IMG/VR virus record: IMGVR_UViG_3300010392_000400
Location: 5,629 to 69,628 of that record
Strand: one strand, 5' to 3'
DNA: 64,000 bases
Source of the DNA: a virus
Part shown: in pieces, positions 5,280 to 59,291 of the stretch
Position numbering within the stretch: the stretch's first letter is position 1
How the letters are laid out: each line of letters starts with the position of its first letter
Notes under the pieces: model-generated
What the model was told of the DNA's origin: nothing
Databases searched by the model: none
The model's input: the letters and a program-made list of their open reading frames with translations, nothing else
Translations under genes and position numbers: made by a program

Positions 5280-5287
5280 CTATCGTT

Positions 5288-17471: not shown

Positions 17472-17480
17472 GGACTTAGG

Positions 17481-33720: not shown

Positions 33721-33721
33721 C

Positions 33722-35790: not shown

Positions 35791-35793
35791 CTT

Positions 35794-38289: not shown

Positions 38290-39144
38290 ATGTCAGTAGT
38301 TAAACGAAGACGACCAAAGAAAAACAGACGTAAACAAGAATCCCACAGTGACCGTATGGCTGACTGGGAAAGGCGTAGTGAGCCTCGGCGTATCCAAGAA
38401 GCCCTTGTAGCAGGTAGTATCTACGGCTCTGTCACACCCTCTAACGGTGTACGCTTAGACGAAAACGTAGGTGATACTGAGTACAACAAAGGTGTCATAG
38501 ATGAGATACGCAGGCTTAGAACCGAGCGTTCCGAGAGAGCAAGACGAAGAGGACGAAGTTACCAAGAAGGTGGCCCAGTCTCTAACGCAGATCGTTACCA
38601 CGCCCGTAAAACAAGGGCTGGCGAGGCCCCTGATAGTCCAATGACAGACAGAGACCTTGTCATGCTCCTTCGTAGAGAGGCTAGTCGCAATCCAGAGAGT
38701 CCTCGTCCTAGTGTTCCTAGACACCAACGTAGAATGGCGCAGGAAGAGCGAAGCCCTATCCCCATCATACCCAATTCCTCAGGTACTGGAAGGTCTACTT
38801 CGTACCCCAACCCAAGACAACCTACTAGAACCCCCGTTGAGCCTCGCCCATCCCCCACCCCTAGGGGACACTTTAGACCGCGTGTCAGGGACCACGCAGA
38901 CTCAGTATCACAACAGATGCGCCGTAACCTCAGGTCCTTTGACAGGGACCACTTGGCAGACAGCGCCCAGGAATGGCTAAGTCGCCCAGACCTGAGTGAC
39001 GCAGAACGCAGGTACTATGAAGACCTTCTGCGTAGAACTCGCCCCCTCCCTAAGACGTACCCCAACGGGAACACGGGTGGCGGAGGTGGCTATAAGAACG
39101 GTGGTCGCGTTAGAAAGCTCATGAGAGAGCGGAAAGGACACTAA
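38290..39144 (+). CDS. Arg/Pro-rich protein with two YxxGGxV tags
   Basis: GGAGG RBS; YQEGGPV (38560-38580) and YKNGGRV (39091-39111). Confidence 0.7.
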   Translation: MSVVKRRRPKKNRRKQESHSDRMADWERRSEPRRIQEALVAGSIYGSVTPSNGVRLDENVGDTEYNKGVIDEIRRLRTERSERARRRGRSYQEGGPVSNADRYHARKTRAGEAPDSPMTDRDLVMLLRREASRNPESPRPSVPRHQRRMAQEERSPIPIIPNSSGTGRSTSYPNPRQPTRTPVEPRPSPTPRGHFRPRVRDHADSVSQQMRRNLRSFDRDHLADSAQEWLSRPDLSDAERRYYEDLLRRTRPLPKTYPNGNTGGGGGYKNGGRVRKLMRERKGH

Positions 39145-42186: not shown

Positions 42187-42498
42187 TTACCCTCCGCTAC
42201 CCCCAAAGAGCTTGAACCAGGCTGTGAGAGCACTCCAGATAGCGAGGATACCCCCGCCTAACCAGAAGATTCCCTTCAAGGCTCCTTTTCCCCAGGTCAT
42301 TTCCTTTGTTAGCTCCTTAGCCAACTTTTGGTTTTCTTCGATCATCTTTTCGTGTTTATCAAGACGGGCTTCAAAGTGTTTTGCTTGCATACGCGACTCT
42401 GTACGGTGCTCCCTAATCTCTATGAGGAGTTTTATCTCCATAGGAAGGTCTTCAACTGTCCCGAGTAAAAGGTCTTTATCGTCGTTGTTATCTATCAT
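42187..42498 (-). CDS. Coiled-coil protein with C-terminal TM helix
   Basis: ...WGKGALKGIFWLGGGILAIW. Confidence 0.65.
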   Translation of the reverse strand: MIDNNDDKDLLLGTVEDLPMEIKLLIEIREHRTESRMQAKHFEARLDKHEKMIEENQKLAKELTKEMTWGKGALKGIFWLGGGILAIWSALTAWFKLFGGSGG

Positions 42499-45400
42499 TC
42501 GTCTTCCAATTGAAATTCATTTTCACCCCAACGCGACCCTTCAGGGGCATCAAATTCGGGTTGTCTCGTGCCAGGACGTTCACCTTCTGTAAAGGCACCT
42601 GGATCAACTCTTTGTGTAATTTCCCTCGCCACTTGGCGTCGGATGCTTGTCATCAGTCTCGGAGGTGGCACAGTGTTATGGGCTGCCATAGACACGTAGA
42701 AGTCAAATATTCTGTCGTTGAACGCGTCAGTAAGCTCCGCAGTCCTTTCCACATTCCCTGCTTCTTGGCTGTAGTGGATATTTACCCCGATTTCCGTTAG
42801 GTCACGATAGAGAGCCCTTCGTGCAGGTACGATGTACTGTTCTTCCAGTGAGCGCCACGTATACGAATTCAGGTTTCTCTCGGACACAGACAGAGGCTGG
42901 ATGCCAAGGGCACGTAGAGCAACCTCGTCAAACCGGATTTCCTCCGGTCCTACATATTGTACACCACGAGTGGTTTCTACGCCAGAAGAGGCCCAATCCA
43001 AGGAACGGAAGATGTTCTGTGCTGCTACGGGGGCTAGCCTGTCAAAGCGCCCTGCCCCTGTGTCCGCCAAGAGACGTCCCGGAATACCTGTGATCCGTTG
43101 CTGAGCGTAAGAGGAGTCTGGGTTGGCCATAAAGGAAACCGCGTTCTCAAAGGGAAGCGGGATACCAATACGACGACTCATGTCCATGTTCATAGATGCC
43201 AGAGACCCGTTAGTCAGGATACGCGCTACCTCAGGCTCTAGTCCAAGCTCTTGTGTAAGGTACCAATTCAGTCTTTCGTCAGCGTTGACAATTCTTCGTT
43301 TGTCTTTAGGCACCAAGTATTGCATGATGAACTCAAAGAGCTCTTTGTAAGTCTCAGCCCCAGGGAATCCGTTGATCCCGGCGAACACGAAGAACATAGT
43401 CATTGCCAAAGCAAACGTCTGCTTACCTTGAACCCCAGTGTGGAAAGCGGAGTTACCCAGGAATTCCAGGACAGTAAGAGGATAGGTCATGAATGGGAAT
43501 ATGATAGACCCAGCCCACCCTCTTTGGATAGCGCCACGGCCTGTCTTGTCGTAGACCCCGTGTGTGTCTTGTACCATTTGTACTGCGATGGGACCTAGAA
43601 CCCTAAGGTCTGATGCATCGGTGATCTTTCTGTTCTCTAAGATAGTCCCAATGAGAGCGTTATCTTTGTTGGACGTCAGGTAGCTGTTGATCGCATCTGT
43701 GTTCACAGTACCGTCGTTACTCACCATGAGATCAAGGTACGACAGGAACGCAGACAGACGAGTGTACCGTTCCGCCATGTGAAGGGGGAACCCGGCAAAC
43801 ATAAGGGTCTTGTCCTTGAACCTACCAAGGGCACTCTGGACCTTTCCTTGGTACTGGTCGTGGACACTTTGGAGCCGCCCACGGGTAAAGGACTCTTCCA
43901 TAATGGACTGCTGAAGGTGTACCATGTTGTTCTGGGTAACACCCATAATCGTTTCTACCTTCTCCTTAGGGAAGTGCTTACGAAGGGTTTTTCTCAGGCT
44001 TGCTTCAGAATACCTGAGTTCAATCGTACGTCCTTTAATATCAGTGTTGTTTCTTCCAGCTTCTACTTCCGCTGTATGTATAATCTCTGCTGCTGCTGCA
44101 CTCATCTTAGCCATAGTCTTAGCGTTACCTAGTACGCTTGTGCGGAACGAAGAGAGACTAGGGTACACAACGGTTGGGATTGTGAATAAGTTAAGGAACG
44201 CTGTAGACAACTGGAAACCTAGAGCGTAGAAGAAGTTCAACTGACGCATCAGGCTTAGGTCATTCGCAGGTTCTGTCATGTACTCCCATTGTTTCTTAAG
44301 GAACGCACGTTGTTCCTCTGGGAAGTGTTCGTTAATAGTATCCGTAGATAAATCTCTTGTAGTGTTATTCAGAATATCTCCGTACCTTTTGAACACGTCG
44401 GCGTACCTGTCATTAGCAAGAACCCACGGTGCGTTGGACAAGTACTCACCTAAGACTGATACGTAATCTTGGCTATACCCACCGATATTCGTAGTCATAC
44501 GAACGTACGACATAAGAGACCCTTTGCGGCCCTCTGCAGACATTCTCTGGGACCTACGTGATCTAAGGTCCTTGATAACTTTTTGCATGTCTTTGGAGGA
44601 CAAATCAGTAGCCCGTAGTACGTGCCCCATATCTTCGATGGTAGCTTCGAACCCAAGTTCTGTTAGCTCGCCTCGTTTGATACTGGACCTATCTACAGGA
44701 GTAGTCTCTTCGTACTGTACGATGTTCAAGTCAGGGTAGTGAGCTTGGTAAAGCTGTACCATATCCTTCTGCACTCGGGCGCGGGCAGCAGCAAGGCCTT
44801 CAACTGAAGGTTTGTTCTTCTTGTTCACAGGTATCTCTACGACCATCTTAAGGTACTTGTCCCCACGAGGTCCTGCGTCAGGGTTCAGGACACGTATTCC
44901 TTTGGAGTTCTTGAAGTAGAAAGCTTGGAACATAGTGTTCGGAGAACTTCTAAGGTGAGGGAAGTAAGGACGTGACGGGTCCAGGAGAACTTCGGAGAAT
45001 TCCAACGTGTTCGCGTAGACTTCTGCTCGGTCAACATTTTCTTGCAGCTTTGCCTTGGCAGGTGATTCCACTGTCATAGCACTTAGTTCTTCCGTAGCGT
45101 TCTCAATCCACTGGTAGACTTCCTTAGAGGTTGTTTCTACGTCGCCTAGGGTTCTACCATCTACGGAGATTCCTAGATCACTAATAGACTCCTGAGTCAT
45201 CACCTTGTACATCAAAGGCACTTTCTTAAGGGTCTTAGTCAGGTTATCCACCGCCGCTGTTTCTTCAGGTGTTAGGGCAAAGGTACGTAGCTCTCCTGAG
45301 CTTGGGTCCCAAGCCTTGTAAAGGAGTCTGTTGTCATCCGTACGGTTCTCCAAGGATTGTCCCGTAGCGTTCATGATGTCTAGTCTGTGGAGTGCTCTCT

Positions 45401-48400
45401 CCGTTTGTTTCACTTTCTCGGGGTTGTTAAAAGGCACCGCGTCAGCGAAGTCCGTTTGGAACTCCAACATGATTTTTTCAATGAGAGTGTTCCTAGAACG
45501 TACAGCGTCAACTAAGGTGGCTAGGGCAGGAAAGTCCTTAGCTTGTCTTTGAAGTGTTCTCCAGGACTTCTGAGATTTGAACATCGCGTCAAAGTTATTG
45601 GAACCTTGGAGAGCGACGGTGTTAGGATTAGCGGACATCTGATCTGACGCTATAAGGTCTACGACACCTCTGCCTTCTTTGTTCATACCCTCTGTAGTAT
45701 TTCTACGTACTTCACGTCTGATGCTGCTTTGGTAGTACTTATGCGAGGCCTCTTCAATACCTCTACGCACTTCGTAACTGTCCCAAGTGTTCCCAAGGAG
45801 ATTCTTTAGGTCACCGTTAGCGGCTCTGCTCATGGATGTCTGGGCTCTCATGAAATTAGGATAGAAAGCCTCACGTACTGCGTGAATGATAACTTTCTTA
45901 GTCATGTACTGGGAGAAGGCTTCTGATGTAATGACTTCTGAGAATTTGTTCTTGCCAAGGTCACGGACAAGGGAGCTTTGGACGTTGGCGTCCAGGTCCA
46001 TCAAAGAGTTCTTGATAGTCTTTGGGTTGATGTCGTACATCTTAGCGAGCTCTTGAGGCGACCAGAAGTCCATCTCACGAAGAACGTGAAACAAAGCAGT
46101 ACCATCGTTTACACTAAGGTTGTCCATGTTGTTCATGGCGTACGTAAGGGTAGTGACACGAGCTCTAGCATCTAGCGAAGTTTCAAACGCACGGATGTCT
46201 CTTTCCAAGTTATCTCGAAACTTCTTTAGACCTGGTCCTGCGAACGCTTGGTTTACAAGGGCGCTTGTGTTCCCCCTATAGTTGGAGAAGGACGGAGCGA
46301 TCTTAGCTTGCTGGAAGTTTGTCCAAGTGATGTCACTGAGACGGACGTCTTGGGCATCTACGCTATACAGGTTTGTATCAGGTGTAGCAAAGGCTTCTCC
46401 TATGCTGTCCAAGAGTTTCCCAGCTTTGATTTCATCGAGGACACTGTCTAGTTCTTTGTACGCCTTGTCCATTTCCTTGAGCTTAGCTCTAGGGACACGT
46501 CGCATTATTTCGCTAGGTACTCTCCAAGCAGATGAATTAAGGAGTGTTCTAGGGTCTACTCCAGATTCCTCTGCTTTCTTCACAAAATTGTCGTAGGCGC
46601 TTTGGGCTTTCCCTTTGATGTTGCCTAGGGAACTGGGGTGTATAGTAGGAGCGCCTTCTGGTTGAGCTTTTAGGGCATCTTCAATCTGAGCCAACACAGG
46701 GTTCTCCCGAGAGAGTATCTCACGGCTTTGGTCCTTACGAATCTGGTCCATGACAGTAGAGTACCTTTGTTGGTCTTGGTCCATCATAGCGTTAGCTTGT
46801 TTAGACAGACCACCTACGGCACTCTCAATATTCGTAGTGTCCATGTCTGTACGGTCTGGAGTCTTCTGTGTGTACCTTAGGTAGTTTGCTAATTCGTTGG
46901 AGACCCTCGGTGTCATCAAAGATAGTTGCTCTACCGAGAAGGGTCTAAAGGACACAGTCTGATCTGGATTGCCAGGGTCTCTCTGTGTGGCTTCGAACTC
47001 GCTAAGGAATTTTCTGTCTTGGTTGACTTGTTCGTTCCCTGTGTTGAAGACCTCACTAAGGGACATACCTCGGAAGTTATTCGCCCCGTATCCTGTGAGT
47101 TTCATGGTTCCCGCCGCCATAGCAATCTCTGCCAAGTTAATAGCTTCTTGGTCAGGAAGGGCAGCAATAGATTCTTCTGTCATAGCCCCTACTCCAACTT
47201 CGGGAGGAGTTACAGCAGTAAGAATTTCTGTTACCATATTCCCTGTCGTTCTAAGGTAAGCTCTGGCATCCTGAGGTGTCTGGAATACGTGACCTCTGAT
47301 ACGATTACGCTCTCTCGTAAAAGCTTCGTTCTTAGCGTTGTCAAGGACACTTGTTACTTCTCTGGTTGACAGGGGAAGGAACGTAGGTGTGTCGTCATAA
47401 AGGTCGTCTACAGAGACAACGTCGTTCTCTACGGCTTCTGTGGCTCTACTTTGGATGGCTCTAGAGGTAAGAGCAGGGTTAACATAGTGGTTTACCCCGG
47501 AGATACCACTACCTAGAGGACCTTCCATAAGGGCTCCACCAAGGGCGCTCCACGCGTACTCCTCAAGGGCGTCAGGACCTAGGACTTCAACTCCGGGAGC
47601 CGCAAGGCGTTCAAAGCCAGCTTGGAGTGTTTCCTCTGTAGCCCCGGTGCCAGCGCCTATGAAGAACTCCCTAGTCACTGTGGACAGAAGGCCTCTACGA
47701 GCTTCTTGGCTCATAGTTGTTTGCGCAGCTTCCCCAGTCATACGACTAGCAAGGTTTCTGAGGACAGGGTTAAGAAGACGAATGGGTACGATGGCTTGAC
47801 TAAGACCTTCTACCGCCGCAGCGGGTAGAGCGAGGCCCATAGTTTGTACTGCGTTGTAATCTGGGTCTTCTCCGTCTTGGGTTGTTTCCTCGTAGTTGCG
47901 GTTCATCATCTCAGACAGAATGAAGGGATACGAAGCTACTGTTGCTGTGGCTCCACCAGCGACCAAAGCTGCTGCGCCTTCCGCAGGAGCGGCGGCTCCA
48001 ACAGCAGCCCCAGCAGCTAAGATAGGAAAGGACCGTCCAAAGGTCTCCCTAAACCACAGAGTGAAGTCACCCCAGTTCTGTAGAAAGGACTCGTCGTCAA
48101 AGACATCCCGTAGGTCTGTCCACTCCCCACGCTCTTCCCTGCGTCTGTTGATTTCGTCGATAAGGTGAATACGATCTTCGTGCGTAGCATCATCTTGACC
48201 ACCTAGAGGCCCCCAGTTTGTATCAAAGGCATCACCTAGTTGTACACCGAGACGAGGAATATCATCTTGTATCCCTGAGATAAGACCACCAAAGAATCCA
48301 GGCTTCTTATCCCCTTCTTCCCAAGGGTGCCAAGGGTTAGGTCCTTGTGCACCTAGGATAGCTGCTCTGTGACGTTCCGTGCGTGTTTCCGCAGGACCTT

Positions 48401-48551
48401 CGTGCTCTGTGATTACATCGGGGAGAAAATCCCCTGCTAGGACTGGTTCTTCTGTTCCTTGGGCTTGCGACGCAGGTAGGTACTGGTTGGTCTCAGGATC
48501 ATAGACCAAACCCATGGTTTCGGCATAAATTGCGTCGTACTCTTTGGGCAT
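42495..48551 (-). CDS. Large internal virion / DNA ejection protein (T7 gp16-position analog)
   Basis: 2018 aa, Ala/Gly hydrophobic segments, GATEETLQ/EYAWSALGG repeats, last in structural module. Confidence 0.7.
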   Translation of the reverse strand: MPKEYDAIYAETMGLVYDPETNQYLPASQAQGTEEPVLAGDFLPDVITEHEGPAETRTERHRAAILGAQGPNPWHPWEEGDKKPGFFGGLISGIQDDIPRLGVQLGDAFDTNWGPLGGQDDATHEDRIHLIDEINRRREERGEWTDLRDVFDDESFLQNWGDFTLWFRETFGRSFPILAAGAAVGAAAPAEGAAALVAGGATATVASYPFILSEMMNRNYEETTQDGEDPDYNAVQTMGLALPAAAVEGLSQAIVPIRLLNPVLRNLASRMTGEAAQTTMSQEARRGLLSTVTREFFIGAGTGATEETLQAGFERLAAPGVEVLGPDALEEYAWSALGGALMEGPLGSGISGVNHYVNPALTSRAIQSRATEAVENDVVSVDDLYDDTPTFLPLSTREVTSVLDNAKNEAFTRERNRIRGHVFQTPQDARAYLRTTGNMVTEILTAVTPPEVGVGAMTEESIAALPDQEAINLAEIAMAAGTMKLTGYGANNFRGMSLSEVFNTGNEQVNQDRKFLSEFEATQRDPGNPDQTVSFRPFSVEQLSLMTPRVSNELANYLRYTQKTPDRTDMDTTNIESAVGGLSKQANAMMDQDQQRYSTVMDQIRKDQSREILSRENPVLAQIEDALKAQPEGAPTIHPSSLGNIKGKAQSAYDNFVKKAEESGVDPRTLLNSSAWRVPSEIMRRVPRAKLKEMDKAYKELDSVLDEIKAGKLLDSIGEAFATPDTNLYSVDAQDVRLSDITWTNFQQAKIAPSFSNYRGNTSALVNQAFAGPGLKKFRDNLERDIRAFETSLDARARVTTLTYAMNNMDNLSVNDGTALFHVLREMDFWSPQELAKMYDINPKTIKNSLMDLDANVQSSLVRDLGKNKFSEVITSEAFSQYMTKKVIIHAVREAFYPNFMRAQTSMSRAANGDLKNLLGNTWDSYEVRRGIEEASHKYYQSSIRREVRRNTTEGMNKEGRGVVDLIASDQMSANPNTVALQGSNNFDAMFKSQKSWRTLQRQAKDFPALATLVDAVRSRNTLIEKIMLEFQTDFADAVPFNNPEKVKQTERALHRLDIMNATGQSLENRTDDNRLLYKAWDPSSGELRTFALTPEETAAVDNLTKTLKKVPLMYKVMTQESISDLGISVDGRTLGDVETTSKEVYQWIENATEELSAMTVESPAKAKLQENVDRAEVYANTLEFSEVLLDPSRPYFPHLRSSPNTMFQAFYFKNSKGIRVLNPDAGPRGDKYLKMVVEIPVNKKNKPSVEGLAAARARVQKDMVQLYQAHYPDLNIVQYEETTPVDRSSIKRGELTELGFEATIEDMGHVLRATDLSSKDMQKVIKDLRSRRSQRMSAEGRKGSLMSYVRMTTNIGGYSQDYVSVLGEYLSNAPWVLANDRYADVFKRYGDILNNTTRDLSTDTINEHFPEEQRAFLKKQWEYMTEPANDLSLMRQLNFFYALGFQLSTAFLNLFTIPTVVYPSLSSFRTSVLGNAKTMAKMSAAAAEIIHTAEVEAGRNNTDIKGRTIELRYSEASLRKTLRKHFPKEKVETIMGVTQNNMVHLQQSIMEESFTRGRLQSVHDQYQGKVQSALGRFKDKTLMFAGFPLHMAERYTRLSAFLSYLDLMVSNDGTVNTDAINSYLTSNKDNALIGTILENRKITDASDLRVLGPIAVQMVQDTHGVYDKTGRGAIQRGWAGSIIFPFMTYPLTVLEFLGNSAFHTGVQGKQTFALAMTMFFVFAGINGFPGAETYKELFEFIMQYLVPKDKRRIVNADERLNWYLTQELGLEPEVARILTNGSLASMNMDMSRRIGIPLPFENAVSFMANPDSSYAQQRITGIPGRLLADTGAGRFDRLAPVAAQNIFRSLDWASSGVETTRGVQYVGPEEIRFDEVALRALGIQPLSVSERNLNSYTWRSLEEQYIVPARRALYRDLTEIGVNIHYSQEAGNVERTAELTDAFNDRIFDFYVSMAAHNTVPPPRLMTSIRRQVAREITQRVDPGAFTEGERPGTRQPEFDAPEGSRWGENEFQLEDE

Positions 48552-48553: not shown

Positions 48554-51500
48554 CTATTGTAGTCCATTTCTATTTTCGAGTTCCCTCTGGATGTTCGCGG
48601 CAAGCTGCTCAGGAGGGATTCCTTCAGAGTACACCTCTCTAGGTATACCTGCTGCATCTAGGTACTGCAAGAGGGTTCCTATACGGGCGTTCTCTGGAAT
48701 ACTCGGGTCATTTAAGAGAGCGGAGACAAAGTCGTGGGCCCTCGTTGGGCTGCTTAGAACTTCGTTAAACATAGAGTCTCTCTGAGAACGTCTCTGAGCT
48801 ACCTCTGCCATAGCCTCTTCTCTTTGGGCTCTTTCGTGTTGAGCCCTTGCTATCTCCAGAGCTTCCCTTCGCATATCGTTGTCTTGCTTTCGTCGCTGAG
48901 CTTGCATAATAGACTGCTGTTCTTGAGCTTGCTGTTCCTGTGCCCTTGCTTGTTCTTGTGAAATATGGTTTATGGCTGGCCCTGCACCTTCTGTGGCCAT
49001 AAGGAGTCCACCTTGAACTAGGTCCCAACGAATTCTGTCTAACCAAGAAGGTTCTTTTTTAGAGTTTCCTTGGGGCTTCCTTAGCATTTCTTCTGCCATT
49101 TCCTCTAACGGGGACCCTCCTGCTTCTACGGGTTCTGGGTCCTCGTACGAAGGCCACTGGGGTCTTTGCACGGGCCTCGCCATAGGACCCTGGTAAGGTC
49201 CTGGCTCTTGGCCCCCTGTTAAGTACGATGGGAGATTCCTAGGAGGTTCTCCGTATGTTGCTAAAGGATTTTCTGAAGCTCTCCCCATGTCCATTGGGAC
49301 ATTAGTAGGAACTCCGTACATACCTGTGTTAACCCCAAGCATGTTATTAATTCTGTCCATAGGGTTCAACTGGTCTAGGACTCTTAGACCACCATCGGCA
49401 AAGCCTTGGACCTCTCCCCCGTCCTTGAAGCTCGAAGACCCACCTTGGCCTTCTTGTTTCCAAAAGTCGAAGGGACTTCCACCGCCTTGTCCAGCAAGGA
49501 AGTCTTCCCCGAAGTTTACGTTCATGCCTTGCCATCCGAAGTTCTGACCCATGCCTCCTTGTTGCTGTTGTTGCCCACCTTGTCCACGTTGTGGTCCAAC
49601 AGGTTCCATTGGGTGGCTAATCTGAGGGACATCTGCTGATACAATAGGGGCCGCAGGTTTAAATGTACCACTTTGTAAAAGGCTCATAAGACCACCTTGG
49701 GGAATACCCATAGGGGGTGCCATGCCTTCCATAGCACTCATGGGATTCTGTTGGAGGCCCATTGGAGAACCTCCAGTGGGGTTAAAGCCCGGTGCGTTCC
49801 AACCTGCTTCAGCAATTCCGTAGTTCACGTTCCCAGCATCCCTTATTTGGGGTTGGAAGGACCCTTCTCTCATTTGTCTTTGGTAGACACCGGGTGGTGT
49901 TATTTGTTGCCCACTGTGTCCGTACCCTGTGTACCCTGTGCTTCCTGCACGGAGGACTTGGCCACCATCAGCAAATCTTAGTCTAGCTTCCCTATTTTCC
50001 TGAGTGTTATAGTAACCTTCGTAGTCAGGGTCTGTTCCAAAGTATCGTCCAAGGTCTTCTTCATTCCTTTGGCGAAGAAGGGTGTTAAGAGGTGTTGGGT
50101 CTTCTTGGTTATTTACGATGCTTATAATTGAATCAGCTAAGTACTCATCTTCCTCGGTATAAGGAAAATTTTCTTTGTAATACTCTGCTACTCTTTCTGA
50201 AATCCTTAGTGTATCTTCTTCACTAACTCCTCTTTCTCTTAAAACTCTTGCAAACTCCCCTGCTGCAGGGCTTACCCCTCTGACAATATCATAGTTGTAC
50301 ATATCACCTAAGGTATTTCGATAAGGCGTTTCATGACTTCCGTAGTAGTCATCCCTATTGCTTTCTGGTGAAATCCCTTCTCTTTGGAGGATGCGAGACA
50401 CAGCATAATTTAGGCTTTCTAGGTTTCGATAAAGGGAGTTTTCCTCTATTTGTTCTCGTTCCGAAAAGAAGAATGGGTTGGAGGTTGAAGGGTCTCCGCC
50501 ATCAGGGCCTCTATCATGTGGGAGTAGGCCTAGGGATTCAATGAGGGCTTGGGTGTCTCTAGCTCCTCTATCGTGTAGGTCATACCTAAGGAGCTTACCA
50601 CCTTCGCCATCGTCAGGGTACCTTCCTGTACCAATAAGCCGCTCCAATTGAACCTTTCTAAGGTCTGTAGGATTTCTAAAGTAATCGTTCATGAGGGGAT
50701 ACGCAAAATCCATTAAACCCCCTTGTTCCTGGACAGTATCGAAAGCCTCTTCCCAGGTTTCTTCATTATTAAAGGCCTCTGGGATTAGACCCCCTGAAAA
50801 GGTATAAGCCGGGTCAACTCTTTGGGGTACTCCACCTTTGTATTCGTCTGATACTAGACGACCAGAAACCCTTCCTCCATCTTGGTACGCTGGGTACCCT
50901 GTGCTTCCTGCACGGAGGACTTGGCCACCATCAGCAAACCTAGGTTGACCTTCAGAGTTTCTACGTGTATCTGAGATACGTCTTCCTAAGTGAACCGAGT
51001 TCTCTCCTGCGTATAAGTCTTCTATAATTTGGTCTGTGATCCCTCGGATTTGGGACTCACTTACGTCTTGGGCTCTTAGGGCGTCTGCGAAAGCACTAGA
51101 GTAAACGTCTCTGTCCCTTAATACATCTTCTGCAAAGATTTGACCAAGGTTGTCTCCGCCTTGGAGTCTAGAGTTGTCTAAGACAAGTCCTGCAGCAAAG
51201 GACAAGTAGTCCCTATCGTCTGTCCTTTGAAAATCTCTTAGAAGACCCCTGTTTTCCTCTGCACGTACCATGGCATCAAAAGGAGGGATTAGGGTAACAA
51301 AGTTATCTGCCATATCATCCCAGTCTTCCACTTCCCTTTGGGCGTATCTTCTTCTGCGGTCTCTCCCACGCTCACCTGCGTCCATGTATTCTTGGAGAAT
51401 ACGGTCTCTACCTGGATCAGACTCAGGGTATTCTTGCTGACCCCTTCGGTAGTTCACAGGGCCACCGTCTTGGTACGCCGGGTAATTATGCCCGAAGCGG

Positions 51501-53323
51501 TCACTTAGATTTCCTGTGTTACGGCCTTGGCTGGCCACTGAAGGGCGTTGAGATTGCCTCCGGCTTTGCCTCCACTCCTGCCCACCAAGTCCTGGTAGTC
51601 TTCGTCCTGGTCTGTCTCTCCTACTAGAGTCTCCACCTAGGGGTGTCCCAGCAAAGGCTGGTAGCGTAGGTGCTGAGGCATTATACCCATTTGGTCCGTA
51701 GACTTCTGGGTAGTGCTCCTCAGCGTACGGTGACATACCGTAGAGTTGGTTAATGAAAGGATTGTAAGCCACGGTTCCTGAAGGAGTTCCGTGTGACATA
51801 GACCCTTGTGGCATTCCGAATGGTGCTTCGCTACTCTGGCCAAGAAGACCTGCTAAAGGACTTCCTTCAGGTGTACCTGGAGTTCCGTTGCCCATTTGGT
51901 TCATCATGGCCATCATTTCTAAGGTACTTCTGTAGTCTGACCCAAGTCGATCATAGGCTCTACTGTCGGTAGGATTTGGAGAACCCCAAGAGTCTAAAGC
52001 AGCTTGGTCTCTTTCGTTGAACAGGATGCCGCCTTGTTCGTCTAGGTCGTAATGAATTTGGTCTCTTCCGTGGGGGTTTCTCTTGTTGTTGAAGGATACG
52101 TACCCACCATCTTGGTACTCGTCCTCGGGTCTACGTTGTGCGTAGGTAACACCGGGGGGAGGTGCTCCGTACATTCCTGGACGGTAGCCTTCTATAAGTT
52201 TCCAAAAAGGGGTGTCGTACCCTACGTCTGGGAAGCTCACGATGCGTTCCAACCACGAAGGGTTCTCGTGTCCACGTTCTTCACGGACGATCTCTCCACC
52301 GTCTGCGTAGCCTCCAATGAGACCTCCGTCTTTGACCATAGGAGCAAACTGACCCGGTGGCATAGCAGCGTTAGTTGCCCCGCCACTCAACATGTTTCCA
52401 AACCCTAGCGCCGCCATGGGGTTTCCACCCATGAGGCCAGCAACACCCATAGCACCACCTAGGACTTGCTCAAAGAGACCCGGTCCTGGTTGTGTAGTTG
52501 TCGTTGTACCTTGGGATGTTCCAGAGGTATGTTGAGGGGAGGACTGCCAAGGGTACCCGTAGGCAATGTTTGAGTAGAACTGAGCTGTATCAAAAGGATA
52601 CTGAACACCTCTTCCGAACTCCCCTACTCCAAAGTCCAAAGCGCCTTGAGCTTGTCCTTGGTACTGTTGCCCAATGTTTAAGAGGTTCTGAGCGTTGGCT
52701 ACCTGTTGAGAGCGTAGGGCCTCACTAGTCCCCATACCAGTTCCAATGGCAGACGCGTTAGCACCTTGACCCCTGTACCAGTTGTCGAGGGCACTGTTGT
52801 AGGCGTCTTGTTGACCCCCGTAAGAAAGCTCCATGGCATTTCGGAGGTGGCCACGTTGAAGTTCACCTTCTTGCACCCCGTGGCGACTTCCTCCAAACGA
52901 CCCCGCTAGCGCTTGGTTGCCATAGAGTTGTTGACGCATTACGTCGTATTGCTCTTGGAGATTTTCCATACCGATGTCCGTAACATTCTGTGTGTACGGG
53001 TTCATCCGACCTTGGATTTCTTGAGAAGTAGGGGGACGACCTGCTTGGTCTAGGAGAGCTAGGGTGTTCCCTGTCACCGCTTCGTTAATGGGGTACGCAG
53101 CGTCAGAGACCCCTCGGATACGTTGGTGTCCCTCAAGAGAGTCTGGTGCAAACGAAGCAACAGGCACCCCTGGGTAGGCTTGGAAGGACTGATCAGCAGC
53201 ACTCCCTGCCATGCCCAAAGCTCTTGTCCAAGCGTTCTGTGCTTCCTGTGGAACTTGGTACTCGCTCCACTGGTCAAAGCTCTGGTTAGTGTTATGTGTA
53301 CTTGTTTGTGAGCCTTTGCCCAT
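48554..53323 (-). CDS. Internal virion / DNA transfer protein, modular, with nine xxDGG tags
   Basis: N-terminus MGKGSQTST..QAYPG..MNPYTQNV..AGSFGGSR..QYP..TTTTQPG typical of podoviral ejection proteins, then tag-separated modules. Confidence 0.75.
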   Translation of the reverse strand: MGKGSQTSTHNTNQSFDQWSEYQVPQEAQNAWTRALGMAGSAADQSFQAYPGVPVASFAPDSLEGHQRIRGVSDAAYPINEAVTGNTLALLDQAGRPPTSQEIQGRMNPYTQNVTDIGMENLQEQYDVMRQQLYGNQALAGSFGGSRHGVQEGELQRGHLRNAMELSYGGQQDAYNSALDNWYRGQGANASAIGTGMGTSEALRSQQVANAQNLLNIGQQYQGQAQGALDFGVGEFGRGVQYPFDTAQFYSNIAYGYPWQSSPQHTSGTSQGTTTTTQPGPGLFEQVLGGAMGVAGLMGGNPMAALGFGNMLSGGATNAAMPPGQFAPMVKDGGLIGGYADGGEIVREERGHENPSWLERIVSFPDVGYDTPFWKLIEGYRPGMYGAPPPGVTYAQRRPEDEYQDGGYVSFNNKRNPHGRDQIHYDLDEQGGILFNERDQAALDSWGSPNPTDSRAYDRLGSDYRSTLEMMAMMNQMGNGTPGTPEGSPLAGLLGQSSEAPFGMPQGSMSHGTPSGTVAYNPFINQLYGMSPYAEEHYPEVYGPNGYNASAPTLPAFAGTPLGGDSSRRDRPGRRLPGLGGQEWRQSRRQSQRPSVASQGRNTGNLSDRFGHNYPAYQDGGPVNYRRGQQEYPESDPGRDRILQEYMDAGERGRDRRRRYAQREVEDWDDMADNFVTLIPPFDAMVRAEENRGLLRDFQRTDDRDYLSFAAGLVLDNSRLQGGDNLGQIFAEDVLRDRDVYSSAFADALRAQDVSESQIRGITDQIIEDLYAGENSVHLGRRISDTRRNSEGQPRFADGGQVLRAGSTGYPAYQDGGRVSGRLVSDEYKGGVPQRVDPAYTFSGGLIPEAFNNEETWEEAFDTVQEQGGLMDFAYPLMNDYFRNPTDLRKVQLERLIGTGRYPDDGEGGKLLRYDLHDRGARDTQALIESLGLLPHDRGPDGGDPSTSNPFFFSEREQIEENSLYRNLESLNYAVSRILQREGISPESNRDDYYGSHETPYRNTLGDMYNYDIVRGVSPAAGEFARVLRERGVSEEDTLRISERVAEYYKENFPYTEEDEYLADSIISIVNNQEDPTPLNTLLRQRNEEDLGRYFGTDPDYEGYYNTQENREARLRFADGGQVLRAGSTGYTGYGHSGQQITPPGVYQRQMREGSFQPQIRDAGNVNYGIAEAGWNAPGFNPTGGSPMGLQQNPMSAMEGMAPPMGIPQGGLMSLLQSGTFKPAAPIVSADVPQISHPMEPVGPQRGQGGQQQQQGGMGQNFGWQGMNVNFGEDFLAGQGGGSPFDFWKQEGQGGSSSFKDGGEVQGFADGGLRVLDQLNPMDRINNMLGVNTGMYGVPTNVPMDMGRASENPLATYGEPPRNLPSYLTGGQEPGPYQGPMARPVQRPQWPSYEDPEPVEAGGSPLEEMAEEMLRKPQGNSKKEPSWLDRIRWDLVQGGLLMATEGAGPAINHISQEQARAQEQQAQEQQSIMQAQRRKQDNDMRREALEIARAQHERAQREEAMAEVAQRRSQRDSMFNEVLSSPTRAHDFVSALLNDPSIPENARIGTLLQYLDAAGIPREVYSEGIPPEQLAANIQRELENRNGLQ
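49931..50938. repeat. 45-bp perfect direct repeat (49931-49975, 50894-50938) encoding FADGGQVLRAGSTGY
   Basis: gtaccctgtgcttcctgcacggaggacttggccaccatcagcaaa occurs twice. Confidence 0.92.
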
Positions 53324-53332
53324 GTTTTTTCC

Positions 53333-54217
53333 TTATTTACCTGTACCTACACGGCCATACGTAGTCTCAGCAGCAGCATTAATCGTCTGGTCAATTTCTA
53401 AGTCAGATAGCCCTTGGCTTCTAAGGTATGCGGCGAATCTACCGTTAAAGGCATTTCCTTCCTGTACGTCTTGGGCAAGCATCCTTGCTAGTCTGTCGGT
53501 GTCATTCCCATAAGAATCTCCATAGGTATTAAGGATATCTTTGTATATTCCAACATCGTACCCACTACGCCCCTGTGGAGAAACCCCCCCGCCGTCTTGG
53601 TACTTCTTGGCTAACGCGGATAACAGCCTGTTTTTCACGGGACCTCCATTCTTGTATTGCCCTGGCGTATAATCGTCAAATTCAGAAACCCCGTAGTCTG
53701 GGGTACCTAGTTTTGCTGCTGCCCAAGAAGCGGCATCAAGTCGGGCGTTGAAATTATGAGATTCACCTGCCCTATAGTCTCTTGTTTGATGTCCAATGGC
53801 GTAAGGGAACTCTCCTTGCTCCCAATCACTTGCTGTACCCCTGTGGTAATCTCTAACGAATGCCTGAGCAATAGCCTCTATTTCCCCTTCGTCTGGAGGG
53901 GAGCGCACTCCTTCGTAGTCGTCAACATTTCTTTCGTATACTTCTCTTATCACAGGTAGAATTTCTCGGAACAGGCTATGTTCTTTTTGTCCCCAGTCAT
54001 CTTCAACGTAGCCATTCCTATGAGAATACCTTTCCCCGTACCTTGGTAAAGACCCACCTTCAAAAAGGTTCATTTCCTCTAGGGCAAAACGTGCCTCGTC
54101 GCTTCCAACGAAACGGCCCTTATCGTCGAAGACATCAGGGTATCCTGAGATAGCCGCCCTACTTCGTGGACCTAAGTCTCCGATAGTTCCTCCGTCTTGG
54201 TATTTTCTTCGTTGCAT
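53333..54217 (-). CDS. Hypothetical virion-associated protein with three YxxGG tags
   Basis: YQDGGTI, YKNGGPV, YQDGGGV. Confidence 0.7.
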   Translation of the reverse strand: MQRRKYQDGGTIGDLGPRSRAAISGYPDVFDDKGRFVGSDEARFALEEMNLFEGGSLPRYGERYSHRNGYVEDDWGQKEHSLFREILPVIREVYERNVDDYEGVRSPPDEGEIEAIAQAFVRDYHRGTASDWEQGEFPYAIGHQTRDYRAGESHNFNARLDAASWAAAKLGTPDYGVSEFDDYTPGQYKNGGPVKNRLLSALAKKYQDGGGVSPQGRSGYDVGIYKDILNTYGDSYGNDTDRLARMLAQDVQEGNAFNGRFAAYLRSQGLSDLEIDQTINAAAETTYGRVGTGK

Positions 54218-54220
54218 TTC

Positions 54221-54739
54221 TTATCCTTTGTGTATCAACACGCTCCCTAGCTTGTCGAAGCCTTTCCTCTTAAAGTATTTCTCTAGCACCTCTACTTGGT
54301 CAGTGTACTGGAACGTTGATCCGACTAGGGGGAACCCCGACATCTTCGCAAAGTCAATAGCAATTTCCATGAGACGGTTAGCTAGATTGTAGCTTCGATA
54401 TAACGGATTCACATAGAACACGAGGTTTACGAGCATCCGATCTTTGCTCCACCAAACTCCTTCGAGTCGGAGAGCCATAATCCCTGTTAGTATATCACGC
54501 CCCTTCTTGTCTGTAAAGGAGGTAACCCATACAATCCCCTCCTCATTTGGACCAAGGAGGTTCCAGAAAGTTGTCTTCACGGCTTCAGCGTCCTTTGGAA
54601 GGAACCCGTGAAGGTTGTTTTGTACGTCGAGGTCATCTCCTACGAGAAAGTTAACAATACTCTCTATGTCTAAGATGGTTGCTCTACGGAGCGCGTGGCG
54701 GTCTTTGGGCTCTTTGGCCACCTTGGCGTTTTGGGGCAT
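54221..54739 (-). CDS. GNAT-fold acetyltransferase-like virion morphogenesis protein
   Basis: LRRATILDI, FYVNPLYR..LANRL, YFKRKGF. Confidence 0.8.
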   Translation of the reverse strand: MPQNAKVAKEPKDRHALRRATILDIESIVNFLVGDDLDVQNNLHGFLPKDAEAVKTTFWNLLGPNEEGIVWVTSFTDKKGRDILTGIMALRLEGVWWSKDRMLVNLVFYVNPLYRSYNLANRLMEIAIDFAKMSGFPLVGSTFQYTDQVEVLEKYFKRKGFDKLGSVLIHKG

Positions 54740-54995
54740 TCTTCTGCTTTCCTAAGACCGCTTGGAAATCCACAGGCTTAGCCTTGTTTCCCTTGTAGTT
54801 CTGGCGGATACCATCCACCAAGCGGTTAAGCGCCTCAGCCCCTGCTTTCGTATTTCCGTCGCCTATCATGGCCACTACGTCAGCAGGGATTACATACTCC
54901 CCCTCAGAAACCTTGGCAATAATGTCGTCGTCACGCCCCTTGTTCGGGGTGCTCATGACAGAGCTTGCCAGCATATCCATTAAATTGTCAGCCAT
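54684..54995 (-). CDS. Stand-alone GEYV domain (tape-measure C-terminal-like)
   Basis: DDDIIAKVSEGEYVIPADVVAMIGDGNTKAGAEAL. Confidence 0.72.
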   Translation of the reverse strand: MADNLMDMLASSVMSTPNKGRDDDIIAKVSEGEYVIPADVVAMIGDGNTKAGAEALNRLVDGIRQNYKGNKAKPVDFQAVLGKQKNAPKRQGGQRAQRPPRAP

Positions 54996-55147
54996 AAGTA
55001 ACCCCTCGCTAATGTTCTTTCAATATCTTCGATAGCTTCTAGGATATCATAGGGTATTTCCCAGTTTTTCCCAAAATCTCCTTCGTCTGCCAAGGAGTAC
55101 TTTGAGATATCGTCGATATAATCTTCCATGTTCTTGTATCCTATCAT
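54980..55147 (-). CDS. Small acidic hypothetical protein, 55 aa (not in ORF track)
   Basis: MIGYKNMEDYIDD... fills the operon gap. Confidence 0.4.
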   Translation of the reverse strand: MIGYKNMEDYIDDISKYSLADEGDFGKNWEIPYDILEAIEDIERTLARGYLWLTI

Positions 55148-55163
55148 ACGTACCACCAGAGCG

Positions 55164-55672: not shown

Positions 55673-55912
55673 CTACTCCTCTACATCTTTGCTAGCTATA
55701 GCGTCTTCGATATCCTCGGTAATAGGCTTTACGTAGACACAGTCTTCTGCTACTACGTCTACTCCGATACGACACTTGATAAGGACTAGGTCCCTTTGAA
55801 GCTCGCTCCAAGCCACCGCCCCAGATACTGCTACCCCGAACCCGCTAATAAGAATCCCAACAATCCAGATAGGAAGCATTTTCTTAAAGTGATCTTCTAT
55901 ATATTGCCACAT
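55673..55912 (-). CDS. Small membrane protein
   Basis: One TM segment; TAATG coupling. Confidence 0.55.
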   Translation of the reverse strand: MWQYIEDHFKKMLPIWIVGILISGFGVAVSGAVAWSELQRDLVLIKCRIGVDVVAEDCVYVKPITEDIEDAIASKDVEE

Positions 55913-57732
55913 TAGCGCTCTCCATCGGGTTGTAACCTGACCCTCATATCCCCAATACGGAACTCCGCATTAGCCACGGTACACTGAACAAGGACGTTCA
56001 TCTGGCGACCTCTAAGTCGTACTGATTTCTTCCCTGTTGTCTCCGTGATGACTAGAGGACCCTTAGTAAACATCTCAGCTTCTTGTGGGTACTTCTTAGC
56101 GTCAAGGAATACTTTAACGGGGGCTGTTTGACGGAAGTCTGGGACGAACTGGTCCACAAACAACATCTTGTCGCCGTTAGCCCCTTCTTCGTTTAGCTGG
56201 ACTTCTCCAGAGCGTATGAAGGCACCCATGACATTGACCCCATCGTTATACCCTGTTTCGTGCTCTAGGTAAGCGTGGGATACGGAGACTGCTTCTGTAG
56301 CAATCGGGGTATCGAAAAGGTCTGACCCGTCCCACGTAGTCCGTACCATATTTCCGTCATAAAAGGTATCTTCAGAGTAATTGTACACAACGTACCTAGA
56401 GTTCTCTATGTTATCCCCAGCGGGGTAGAACCACCACAGTTCACCAAAGTCTGAGTTAACCCCACAGAAAACCTTTTCCTTTTGGTTCAAGTTTAATCGG
56501 TACGGATGATTCTGGGAGAACAAGGCTTCGTCTAAAGAACTTGCTAGCCTGCGTACCGTTCCGTCGTACACATAGAGTGATCCTGCAGCCATCCAGTATA
56601 GGAGGCCGTTGACCTCACACCCAGCGTTCATGCCTACCATGCCACAGTTACCACCTAGTCTATCAAATGAGTAGTAGTTAGGAGGACCTTCGTAGTTCAT
56701 AGCGTAAGAGCCTTCATCTGTGAAGATAACGTGTTGTTTCTTTGAGTCCATAGCTCCGACGATCTTAGAACCTACAGGAATACGGTAGTCTCCAGAGCCA
56801 TTTGTTACGGCTGCTGTCCACTCTGTGTAATCTTCTGTATCTGACCAACGAATAAGCATAGGGTCATAGTTCCCCCCTGCTACACAAGTGCCACAAAGGA
56901 CGACTTGGCGGGAAGGGTTGCTAAGGAACATGAAACTGTTCTCAGTAGGAGCGTTGTTGACTACGGAGGCTCTACCTCCAGCAGATGTTTCTCTGTAGTA
57001 CAAAGCGCCTTGTCTTTGACACGCTATGAGGTCTTCTCCCCAGTTAGCGAGGGACCATTGGCGAAGATCAGTGGCTACACCACCAGACCCAGCGAGACCG
57101 TAGAAACCATCTGAGTAAGAATCTGAGCCCCACCCAAAGAGGGCTCCGTTAGACTTTAGACCTGCTGTGATAAGAAATTGAAACGAAGTAGACACAGCAC
57201 TTTCAGAAGAATAACTCGAAACTGCTTCCTCCCGAAGGGATATGTCAAAGTGATCTGTGCCAGCAGACACAACACGGTACAGACCAACTGAGGCTGAGTG
57301 ATTTCCGTCTGTAAGGTACGTAGAGGTGCCAACGTGAACTAGATCGTTTGTTTGGGCTCCGTGCCCCGTAAGAGATACATTAGCTACCCTAGATGATGCT
57401 GTTCCTGAGAAAGCGGAGGCTGCTACGACAGAGGCCCGAAGAGGTGTAATATCTGCGAAGGCCCCACCTTCCTCGACCCAAAGGGAATTATGTGTTCCCA
57501 AGGCTACGAGTTTAGAGCCGTCTAGTGTGCTCCACGAGTGTACTGCTCGGGCAACTCCCCAATAGAAAGAGCCGTCGGTTGTCTTCTCAGACCATCCACC
57601 GATCTTCTCAGCGTTACCGTGAGAGAACCGCATCTTGTCTGCAGAGACCCATGACCCTTCGGCTTGGTACTCTGTGACATTCCTGTTGATGCCGGGTTGG
57701 ATGCGGAGTTTAGTGAGGGCTCCTTCGCTCAT
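55912..57732 (-). CDS. Tail nozzle / stabilisation protein (P22 gp10, T7 gp12-like)
   Basis: QPGIN..EKIGGW, WSLANWGEDL, DPMLIRWSD, FGELWWFYP, RTTW, RLRGRQ, QPDGER. Confidence 0.8.
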   Translation of the reverse strand: MSEGALTKLRIQPGINRNVTEYQAEGSWVSADKMRFSHGNAEKIGGWSEKTTDGSFYWGVARAVHSWSTLDGSKLVALGTHNSLWVEEGGAFADITPLRASVVAASAFSGTASSRVANVSLTGHGAQTNDLVHVGTSTYLTDGNHSASVGLYRVVSAGTDHFDISLREEAVSSYSSESAVSTSFQFLITAGLKSNGALFGWGSDSYSDGFYGLAGSGGVATDLRQWSLANWGEDLIACQRQGALYYRETSAGGRASVVNNAPTENSFMFLSNPSRQVVLCGTCVAGGNYDPMLIRWSDTEDYTEWTAAVTNGSGDYRIPVGSKIVGAMDSKKQHVIFTDEGSYAMNYEGPPNYYSFDRLGGNCGMVGMNAGCEVNGLLYWMAAGSLYVYDGTVRRLASSLDEALFSQNHPYRLNLNQKEKVFCGVNSDFGELWWFYPAGDNIENSRYVVYNYSEDTFYDGNMVRTTWDGSDLFDTPIATEAVSVSHAYLEHETGYNDGVNVMGAFIRSGEVQLNEEGANGDKMLFVDQFVPDFRQTAPVKVFLDAKKYPQEAEMFTKGPLVITETTGKKSVRLRGRQMNVLVQCTVANAEFRIGDMRVRLQPDGER

Positions 57733-58622: not shown

Positions 58623-59291
58623 TTAGTTTTCTCCGCTGAACGTATTGTTCACTTTTTGAGGGTTGCTAAGGGGTTCCGTAGAATCCCTGCGTGATCTTCG
58701 ACCCTCATTGTTCACAGCTTGGATTGCTTCCATATACCGAGTATCCCAAAGCTGTACTTGGCTCCATTGCTTTGAAAACTTGGCTACTTCGGACATTGTA
58801 GCAAAGTACAAGGCGTCTGGGTAGAAGTTCGTAAATACGTTAGTGGACACGGCAGCAGTTATCTTAGTAGGTTGAGCCTCGTGAGTCACAACAAGCTGGG
58901 AATTTCCATCGGGCGTAGGTGCGAGGAGAAACGCCGAAACATTGGCATCTGCGTAGTACACGGGGGTTCCCCCTGAAGCTTCGTAAGGCCAATAGTACTC
59001 ACAGTAGGACCTTGTCCGTTTTCGTAGGACCTTTCGGTCTCCGTTAGCCTTTTTGAACAGAACTTCGTGCCCTACCCGGTACCCTGAAGGTTTATCTACA
59101 AATCTGTTACCGTTTGTTGCAGAGACTGTCGTTGTCACTAGGAGGACTTGGGAGTCCATCTCCCGTGTCATACGATCCTCAGCCAGCCCAATAGCTGTAG
59201 GAATAAACGCACGAAATTCAGTGGAATCGTCCTCTTGCGTGTTAACCACAGCGGATACTAGCGTTGTGTAGTTTGAGATGATCTCTGCCAT
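58623..59291 (-). CDS. Head-tail adaptor (tail tubular A-like)
   Basis: NYTTL, FIPTAIGLAEDR, GTPVYYA, LAPTPD, PDALYFA. Confidence 0.78.
   Translation of the reverse strand: MAEIISNYTTLVSAVVNTQEDDSTEFRAFIPTAIGLAEDRMTREMDSQVLLVTTTVSATNGNRFVDKPSGYRVGHEVLFKKANGDRKVLRKRTRSYCEYYWPYEASGGTPVYYADANVSAFLLAPTPDGNSQLVVTHEAQPTKITAAVSTNVFTNFYPDALYFATMSEVAKFSKQWSQVQLWDTRYMEAIQAVNNEGRRSRRDSTEPLSNPQKVNNTFSGEN

Follow-up and report, generated by a model that had tools for sequence, protein, structure and literature searches.

How does a short peptide, repeated through several internal proteins of a short-tailed phage, relate to the small protein encoded just upstream of them? The question is raised by a 64,000-nucleotide stretch of the IMG/VR virus record IMGVR_UViG_3300010392_000400 (positions 5,629 to 69,628), hereafter the window, which holds the internal (ejection) protein module of a ~69.5-kb podovirus. 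Between positions 48,554 and 54,995 of this stretch, a large ejection-type protein, P0001, and its neighbour P0003 carry copies of the peptide, here called tags, and P0002 is a small protein with a free domain, the core, named after its GEYV motif. An earlier sequence-only reading had proposed that P0002 recognizes the tags in trans and either cleaves the polyprotein or loads tagged cargo into the head. Profile searches and motif counts show that tag and core are two parts of one very widespread, unannotated module of tape-measure proteins and of tape-measure-like ejection proteins of podoviruses, and that in the canonical form of this module the tag lies 15-19 residues upstream of the core glutamate in the same chain. 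In the window lineage the module is split: the core is a free protein of 103 amino acids (aa), and fourteen tags lie on P0003, P0001 and a third protein, P0005. The four proteins are listed here, with L-numbers denoting related viral loci and N1 a conserved domain described below.

54684..54995, minus strand: P0002, 103-aa stand-alone GEYV core protein, tag-free
53333..54217, minus strand: P0003, 294-aa tagged protein, whose cassette is found within the N1 extension in L004/L005
48554..53323, minus strand: P0001, 1589-aa ejection-type protein with tags between its cassettes
38290..39144, plus strand: P0005, 284-aa arginine-rich ORFan with two tags, at the end of a plus-strand block and far from the structural genes

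A tag repeated in three proteins

Translation recovered all nine tags that had been reported in P0001, the three in P0003 (residues 6, 188 and 206) and the two in P0005 (residues 91 and 268), and likewise bore out that the 103-aa GEYV open reading frame (ORF) has no tag of its own. The pattern first given for the tags, [YF]xxGGx[VI], fits seven of the nine in P0001, and the other two deviate at one position each, with V at the aromatic site and R at the last site, respectively.

54182..54202, minus strand: YQDGGTI, P0003 residue 6, at the protein N terminus
53636..53656, minus strand: YKNGGPV, P0003 residue 188
53582..53602, minus strand: YQDGGGV, P0003 residue 206, forming a doublet with the residue-188 tag, 18 residues apart
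52316..52336, minus strand: variant VKDGGLI, P0001 residue 330
52289..52309, minus strand: YADGGEI, P0001 residue 339
52097..52117, minus strand: YQDGGYV, P0001 residue 403
51455..51475, minus strand: YQDGGPV, P0001 residue 617, conserved as Y[VA]EGG in L003/L004
50918..50938, minus strand: FADGGQV, P0001 residue 796
50867..50887, minus strand: YQDGGRV, P0001 residue 813, forming a doublet with the residue-796 tag
49955..49975, minus strand: FADGGQV, P0001 residue 1117, aligning with RYADGGQV of L003
49409..49429, minus strand: FKDGGEV, P0001 residue 1299
49382..49402, minus strand: FADGGLR, P0001 residue 1308; the 1299/1308 doublet is conserved in L003 as FRDGGGVQGYANGG
38560..38580, plus strand: YQEGGPV, P0005 residue 91 (SYQEGGPV)
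39091..39111, plus strand: YKNGGRV, P0005 residue 268 (GYKNGGRV)

The tags are far more frequent than chance, as the sequence-only reading required. For the strict pattern [YF]x[DN]GG, with the expectation taken from each protein's own composition and from 2000 composition-preserving shuffles, P0001 has eight tags, in addition to VKDGG, against 0.22 expected, and P0003 has three against 0.065; none of the 2000 shuffles reached the observed count in either protein. In P0005 the single strict tag (0.006 expected) was matched by 12 of 2000 shuffles, and the 2018-aa protein adjacent to P0001 has no strict tag. Summed over 79 non-overlapping ORFs of the window, 14 strict tags stand against 0.98 expected, and across the whole 69.6-kb genome the slightly looser pattern [YF]x[DNE]GG occurs 16 times against 1.95 expected, with 13 of these 16 in P0001, P0003 and P0005. 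Forty-seven instances from the window and its closest lineages give the consensus [RK]-x-[YF]-[AQ]-[DE]-G-G-x-[VI], in which G-G is invariant, Y or F is present in 46 and V or I occupies position +6 in 37. Doublets of tags 9-18 residues apart are common, and successive single tags or doublets are spaced ~100-360 residues apart.

One may argue that such a motif merely reflects low-complexity sequence with much glycine, or recent duplication of DNA, and is functionless in itself. The flanks do abound in G, P, Q and R, L004 has a repeat with a period of ~118 residues that includes tag doublets, and the tags at residues 796 and 1117 are identical in DNA and look like a recent duplication. This pair is however the sole exception: synonymous codons vary among the other tags, so the motif is kept at the protein level rather than as a DNA repeat. 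The tags also stay conserved where their flanks have diverged (50-57% identity to L003/L004). The shuffles, the codons and this conservation already contradict the by-product explanation, which we consider very improbable.

The GEYV core and its co-varying tags

P0002 is a real gene, with a Shine-Dalgarno-like GAGGGG 8 nucleotides upstream of its ATG and seven stand-alone relatives of 87-100 aa at 49-57% identity. Its sequence, which includes ...DDDIIAKVSEGEYVIPADVVAMIGDGNTKAGAEAL..., has a conserved LMDMLA segment towards its N terminus, continues with GRDDD...SEGEYVIPADVVAMIGDGN...AG..L and ends in a basic, proline-rich tail. The eight-member stand-alone family shares the invariant block GR.D..(P)A..SEGEYVIPAD.V.M.GDG...AG, and the pattern across the module as a whole is ...GRxDx-PAx-SxGE[YF]V-PAxVVxx-GxGN..AG..L. 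A profile built from the eight stand-alone sequences, with P0002 as seed, was searched against 1.84 billion cluster representatives (clusters at 50% identity) and matched 14,351 clusters at E ≤ 1e-3, of which 3,086 also pass E ≤ 1e-10. The matches mostly lie near the C terminus of proteins of 200-5000 residues, usually as two units, and the P0002 profile aligns with the tandem two-unit family at an hhalign probability of 99.5% (E 4e-23).

Existing annotation hardly touches the core. No Pfam or NCBIfam model covers it in P0002 or its relatives; P0001, P0002 and P0003 have no Pfam match, for P0002 and P0003 not even at E ≤ 10. The tape-measure families phrog_3547 and phrog_6090 do match the core (P0002 to phrog_3547, E 1e-5), and matches in PHROGs are partial and confined to tape-measure and unknown-function families. 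When 15 core matches were scanned against Pfam, two contained PhageMin_Tail, which identifies these two as tape-measure proteins, and one of the two also had lysozyme-like and NlpC/P60 domains; one other carried a GDSL lipase domain, and most had no domain at all. Among ten core clusters checked by name, a single one was named, and only as 'hypothetical protein'. A crAss cargo protein 1 was considered as a relative of P0002 and rejected: the match was at chance level (score 0.83), the P0002 model was poor (pLDDT 0.52) and there was no Pfam match.

A second short module, GR[YF]GD[ST]MLxHVxPxE..GL.S....T[IV]NPxTGxPEAF, was seen at the N terminus of long GEYV proteins and of some N1 proteins, with a glycine-rich hydrophobic stretch after it (e.g. 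L021:7826-8065, L036:2948-3247, L058:7358-7657 and L062:2340-2639); it was not found in the window. The possibility that this N-terminal GRYGDTMLMHVNP...TINPxTGxPEAF motif is a diverged GEYV unit was rejected (hhalign probability 0.7%).

Tag and core belong together, as the sequence-only reading had supposed. Among 304 core units in 156 representative proteins, 78 are preceded by [YFW]xxGG at a distance of 5-45 residues from the core Glu, compared with 211 of 3390 control windows in the same proteins; of the 78 cis tags, 48 fall at 15-19 residues. The 156 proteins hold 67 strict tags against 9.4 expected. The arrangement is seen even in a close relative of P0002, the 140-aa P0018, which has YADGG upstream of the core in the same chain.

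Siphoviral tape-measure proteins supply close counterparts. The tape-measure protein of mycobacteriophage Douge contains two copies of the unit, YA[GN]GGFLSG-GTGRSDSMLARVSNGEFI, in which a tag and GRxD are separated by about seven residues and GE[FY] comes next; the units, also written YA[GN]GGFLSG-GTGRSDS...SNGEFI, match the core profile (E 1.8e-5), and P0002 itself matches Douge gp16 (E 2.7e-4). This protein is the only entry with a solved structure that contains the core sequence, and according to the available part of its description only tape-measure residues 1658-1699 are modelled, the tag and core region not being resolved. For lambda gpH, the motifs cited in the sequence-only reading, FATGG (at 731), GEFV (near 754) and YATGG (at 779), are all present in the sequence record, but gpH did not reach significance against the GEYV core profile; lambda therefore offers a motif-level resemblance only. 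Pfam PF09718 (Tape_meas_lam_C) covers gpH 627-701, upstream of the tag and GEFV region. The stretch at gpH ~715-790 resembles Douge gp16 ~956-1007 and 1412-1449 in having, in this order, a glycine-rich hydrophobic stretch, an aromatic-x-x-G-G tag and a GE[FY][VI] core, and P0001 shares with gpH the glycine-rich hydrophobic stretch followed by a tag. In these tape-measure proteins of long-tailed phages, tag and core are contiguous in one long chain, whereas in the window, from a short-tailed phage, the 103-aa core is free and the tags are on other proteins.

The hub gene and its neighbours are landmarks for comparing the split across relatives.

55912..57732, minus strand: tail hub/nozzle-type virion protein, the syntenic anchor of the module (phrog_3287, E 4.8e-58)
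54221..54739, minus strand: P0004, 172-aa GNAT-like protein, between the core gene and the ejection proteins (phrog_1249 acetyltransferase, E 3.4e-7)
42495..48551, minus strand: 2018-aa giant protein, tag-free by motif count, and by synteny the counterpart of the relatives' ~2000-2400-aa proteins

A scan of viral contigs yielded 385 relatives, of which 80 loci were kept, with genes taken as greedy longest-ORF calls and no annotations. The conserved order runs from the hub through a pair of small genes to the GEYV protein, followed by an acetyltransferase-like protein of ~160 aa, N1, a protein of ~470 aa and one of ~2000-2400 aa. The core is fused in 68 of the 80 loci, where it lies ≤~25 residues from the C terminus of a protein of 257-1353 aa (contig ends truncate five of these ORFs), and in the other 12, as in the window, it stands alone (92-119 aa); fused and stand-alone cores share the same syntenic position. 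The proposal of a split domain is thereby supported. The stand-alone state requires at least two changes, four by parsimony, on a poorly resolved tree of this short domain, so it probably characterizes several lineages.

The tags follow the core, in keeping with the co-occurrence anticipated by the sequence-only reading. In fused loci, 43 tags were observed in the core protein against 6.35 expected, 11 in the four downstream proteins against 10.15 and 4 in other proteins against 10.39. Where the core stands alone, the four downstream proteins instead have 44 against 2.37 expected and other proteins 6 against 3.83. At least one tag is present in all nine uncut N1 homologues from loci with a free core but in only 2 of 39 from loci with a fused core. 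Furthermore, four complete genomes with a hub relative and no core (phiM5, Octadecabacter DB2, MJing1 and vB_OspP_OH) have no tag against 3.08 expected in sum, and the CRP-902 module contains neither core nor strict tag.

Cassettes, predicted fold and possible function

The tagged proteins seem to be assembled from movable pieces. P0001 is, by alignment, a fusion of the N1 domain with the product of the relatives' next gene, and two of its segments are useful landmarks.

52424..53323, minus strand: N1 domain, P0001 residues 1 to ~300, conserved in 53 ORFs including the window's own (phmmer)
52358..52486, minus strand: glycine-rich hydrophobic segment, P0001 residues ~280-322, just ahead of the first tags (top Kyte-Doolittle 19-residue windows start at 280-294)

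Residues 1-295 of P0001 are 59% identical to residues 1-296 of the L003 N1 protein, and the domain is also similar to GB2A gp064c and MinM2 MM2_23. The first tag after it lies at residues ~303-461 in every uncut N1 of the stand-alone-core loci. Further along, P0001 residues 397-640 align from the very first residues of separate 1046- and 1144-aa proteins of L003 and L004, which start MNNRRTYKGYQDGG, and whose residue-10 tag corresponds to the internal tag at residue 403 of P0001; the latter tag therefore marks the gene-fusion point. Residues 1124-1298 match L003 residues 478-632 and are flanked by conserved tags, and residues 624-1116 have no counterpart in the L003 and L004 proteins. In P0003, residues 13-187 match residues 346-443 of L004 and L005 (blastp, E 4e-6). 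The earlier remark that the tags separate unrelated-looking modules is thus roughly right: the tags sit at cassette and gene junctions, and the intervening pieces behave as shuffled cassettes. The evidence for P0003 as a paralogue of P0001 787-1035 is weak (23% identity, E 0.001, or E 0.27 with composition correction). A comparison of the tagged P0001 extension with the long bodies of the fused GEYV proteins gave no match outside L003/L004, and this homology was rejected.

The N1 extension of L004 (6530-9208) has tag doublets at 453/464 and 571/582 and a single tag at 689, with a period of ~118 residues, which suggests tandemly repeated cassettes each headed by tags. P0005 has no relatives in viral contigs or among 5.8 billion proteins and may be an extra tagged virion protein.

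Structure prediction gives a partial view of the core. The AlphaFold2 model of a tandem two-unit protein, P0085 (17-row alignment), has a mean predicted local distance difference test (pLDDT) score of 77.9 and a predicted TM-score (pTM) of 0.64, with the cores above 90; each unit is modelled as strand, strand, helix, helix, and the two cores pack confidently on each other. We infer from this model that the core would be stable only when paired with a second core, so that free P0002, or the C terminus of a fused protein, would probably be a dimer or higher oligomer. The model of the single-unit P0018 with its cis tag (20-row alignment) has pLDDT 63.2, pTM 0.26 and no strands, and because of this low confidence says nothing reliable on tag packing. 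Searched with the tandem model, Foldseek returned no match in the PDB at E ≤ 1e-3, and the best VIA-align match among 48,161 chains had a Z of 2.5 and a root-mean-square deviation of 4.3 Å over 86 residues; in a viral model library the only matches were uncharacterised proteins of uncultured phages. The core pattern G-x-V-x-I-P-x-x-V...G resembles that of AbrB/SpoVT-like swapped-hairpin domains. The 17 tandem members, however, had no Pfam match to AbrB/SpoVT at E ≤ 10, no such chain was among the VIA matches, and helices take the position of the second AbrB hairpin in the tandem core model.

It could be proposed, as the sequence-only reading did for P0002, that the tags are proteolytic processing sites, the polyproteins being cut into cassettes by the GEYV protein or by another protease of phage or host. 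The junctions lend this some appeal: in relatives, a tag that P0001 carries internally comes a few residues after the start of a separate gene, as would be expected at a polyprotein junction. In the available part of PMC12617516, lambda gpH is reported to be cut at about residues 690-710, with site and enzyme unknown and residues ~690-817 not resolved, which places the cut ~20-40 residues upstream of the first gpH tag. The T5 tape-measure protein is also cleaved, but after R1127, which the part of PMC10038345 available does not describe as a tag-like motif. Against processing by the core, no catalytic-type residue is conserved across the core unit types, and G, P, A and hydrophobic residues dominate the invariant columns. 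In tandem proteins the first unit has Ser, Thr or Ala in place of the Glu of GEY, and the second lacks GRxD. The core unit is also only ~45 residues long and, in the structure searches just described, matches no solved protease, although such a lack of matches does not by itself mean a different fold. P0002 and its relatives match no peptidase family in Pfam, NCBIfam or PHROGs, and neither a peptidase family nor a prohead maturation protease was matched in the 69.6-kb genome among the selected ORFs of at least 79 aa that were scanned, some ORFs remaining unannotated. A protease role for the core is thus unlikely, contrary to what had been proposed for P0002, and we regard processing at the tags by any protease as improbable.

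The reading we prefer, tentatively and at rather less than even odds, is a non-catalytic docking and oligomerisation system in which the core is paired and the tags dock onto it, within one chain (in cis) in most phages but between proteins (in trans) here. The core would be a small, non-enzymatic strand-strand-helix-helix unit that needs a second core as partner in order to fold, and the tags would be disordered docking peptides. Binding between them would hold the long ejection proteins, which are largely unfolded, in bundles or in order while assembly proceeds, or would tether them close to the hub. A more specific version, which seems to us doubtful but worth stating, is that the paired GEYV core acts as a reader protein that binds a tag on every injected cassette, forming a modular adaptor that loads, orders or tethers the cassettes; the cis contact would then be the function of the C-terminal region of tape-measure proteins such as lambda gpHC.

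Several observations weigh against docking. The cis tags have pLDDT 55-70 in both AlphaFold2 models and no regular secondary structure bar one bridge residue; in these monomer models the disordered tags therefore give no support for beta-strand complementation, and the alignments of 17 and 20 rows are shallow. A cis tag is present for only 26% of cores (78 of 304), so the core does not need one. In P0002, the place of a tag is taken by the conserved LMDMLA segment, which may itself already fill any tag site. One core gene for about 14 tags is also an odd stoichiometry. Finally, the tag counts per locus class and the N1 counts are not independent because the loci are related, most tags of stand-alone loci come from the window, L003 and L004/L005, and the gene sets are the longest-ORF calls mentioned above.

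Some of the same observations suit a different explanation, that tags and core are functionally independent. The tags would then be flexible hinges, docking sites for another partner (the hub, the portal, N1 or the host envelope) or junction linkers favouring cassette exchange, their co-variation with the core would come from a tag-bearing region moving between neighbouring genes, and the free core would be no more than a C-terminal domain, for oligomerisation or hub anchoring, left over from a truncated tape-measure-like protein. This would account for the disordered tags, for the 226 of 304 cores (74%) without a cis tag, for orphan tags hundreds of residues from the core in fused proteins and for cassettes that are swapped, fused and split exactly at tags. 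The tandem model likewise suggests that the core's own role is pairing, and in lambda it is the extreme C terminus of gpH, residues 818-849, and not the GEFV region, that is seen bound to gpI in the available part of PMC12617516. Nevertheless, without a structural link it is difficult to see why distant families keep so sharp a spacing of 15-19 residues. Tags are also missing in the four relatives that lack the core and in the CRP-902 module, which all retain genes for the hub and the acetyltransferase, and no downstream enrichment of tags is seen when the core is fused. We regard independence as the main alternative, with a chance somewhat below that of docking.

Genome setting, known systems and meaning

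The structural module is of podovirus type and runs on the minus strand from ~64000 down to 40700, with several very large ORFs. The 69,628-base genome is most likely a circular or terminally redundant assembly of ~69.5 kb, because its first 30 bases recur 127 bases before its end (1-127 and 69502-69628). The major head protein is encoded just beyond the window and matches only the capsid part of head-protease fusion families. Further landmarks are as follows.

58623-59291, minus strand: SU10-type adaptor, in the structural module
40707-41180, minus strand: three-transmembrane (3-TM) holin, in the structural module
1002-6175: portal and terminase subunits, from library scans

Relatives of the hub protein occur in 25 phage records, e.g. 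pelagiphages HTVC023P and HTVC027P, roseophages CRP-901 and CRP-902, Synechococcus phage MinM2 and Caulobacter phages GB2A and RW. An ORF of ~145-172 aa occupies the position of P0004 in most of L003-L082 and in L085, L088 and L090, and the gene at this position is annotated as an acetyltransferase in CRP-902, Octadecabacter DB2 and vB_OspP_OH. This acetyltransferase gene, between the hub genes and the internal virion proteins, is kept even in relatives without core and tags. In P0004 itself the usual acetyl-CoA glycine motif looks degenerate by eye.

Other genes of the window were noted in passing. A small acidic ORF of 58 codons (54996-55160, minus strand) lies between a 168-aa gene and P0002 and overlaps the P0002 start. 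Genes for an aldo/keto reductase (E 4e-40) and a 2OG-Fe(II) oxygenase stand between the head and tail genes (59302-60893, minus strand), and HTVC023P has several 2OG-Fe(II) oxygenase genes at the same place. Two plus-strand gene groups, 16348-19009 and 33169-37233, suggest sugar or nucleotide modification; such modification-type genes encode DUF7227, cytidylyltransferase-like, cupin/mannose-6-phosphate isomerase and MptE-like proteins, and three methyltransferases, TylF-like and CmcI-like ones among them. Just downstream of the portal, at 236-799 on the minus strand, is the gene for a protein of 187 aa that has a GroES/Cpn10-like domain (Pfam E 8e-7; phrog_3188 E 3e-9).

Close known systems include the fused GEYV proteins of HTVC023P-like, MinM2-like and Caulobacter GB2A-like podoviruses, which are encoded at the same place, after the hub and before the acetyltransferase and N1, and share the same core at their C terminus, but have their tags in the core's own chain. 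They are 257-1353 aa long and accompanied by a short, untagged N1, whereas the core gene of the window lacks the long body and the tags are on the N1 fusion and its neighbour. GB2A gp065c is annotated as a tape measure protein and the MinM2 homologue as a 'calcium-binding protein', and some fused GEYV proteins carry lysozyme and LysM domains, like ejected cell-wall-degrading proteins.

In phage T4, a short N-terminal peptide, the capsid targeting sequence, marks proteins for the head and needs the prohead protease and the scaffold core. Several tagged proteins here similarly start with a tag at residues 6-12; unlike in T4, the tags are mostly internal and repeated, and no protease was matched among the scanned ORFs. 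A similar stitching idea is found in the 'molecular tape' model of T7 gp16-N, in which, as described in the available part of PMC8954989, short segments stitch disordered parts of another ejection protein during ejectosome assembly; gp16-N has no sequence relation to the present proteins, and is a single segment rather than a repeated motif with a dedicated small partner. Tape-measure and ejection proteins are a known class, but no earlier account seems to exist of the module, of its duality of tag and core or of the split: a literature search, which did not cover supplementary files, found no description of the motif pair, and the tag strings gave primer-like matches only.

The unit of core and tag, found in 14,351 clusters, is among the commonest unannotated elements encountered here in phage DNA-delivery proteins. 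In lambda, its counterpart at the motif level falls within a stretch of gpH left unresolved by recent cryo-electron microscopy, beside a cleavage whose site and enzyme are unknown, as far as the available part of PMC12617516 describes them. The split lineage is in effect a natural split-domain experiment, and a small protein with tag peptides is far easier to work with than a tape-measure protein of 850-1700 residues. If a paired core does read the tag on each cassette, new cargo could join the virion simply by gaining a tag, and if the tags are docking signals, they would also explain the exchange of ejection cassettes between phages.

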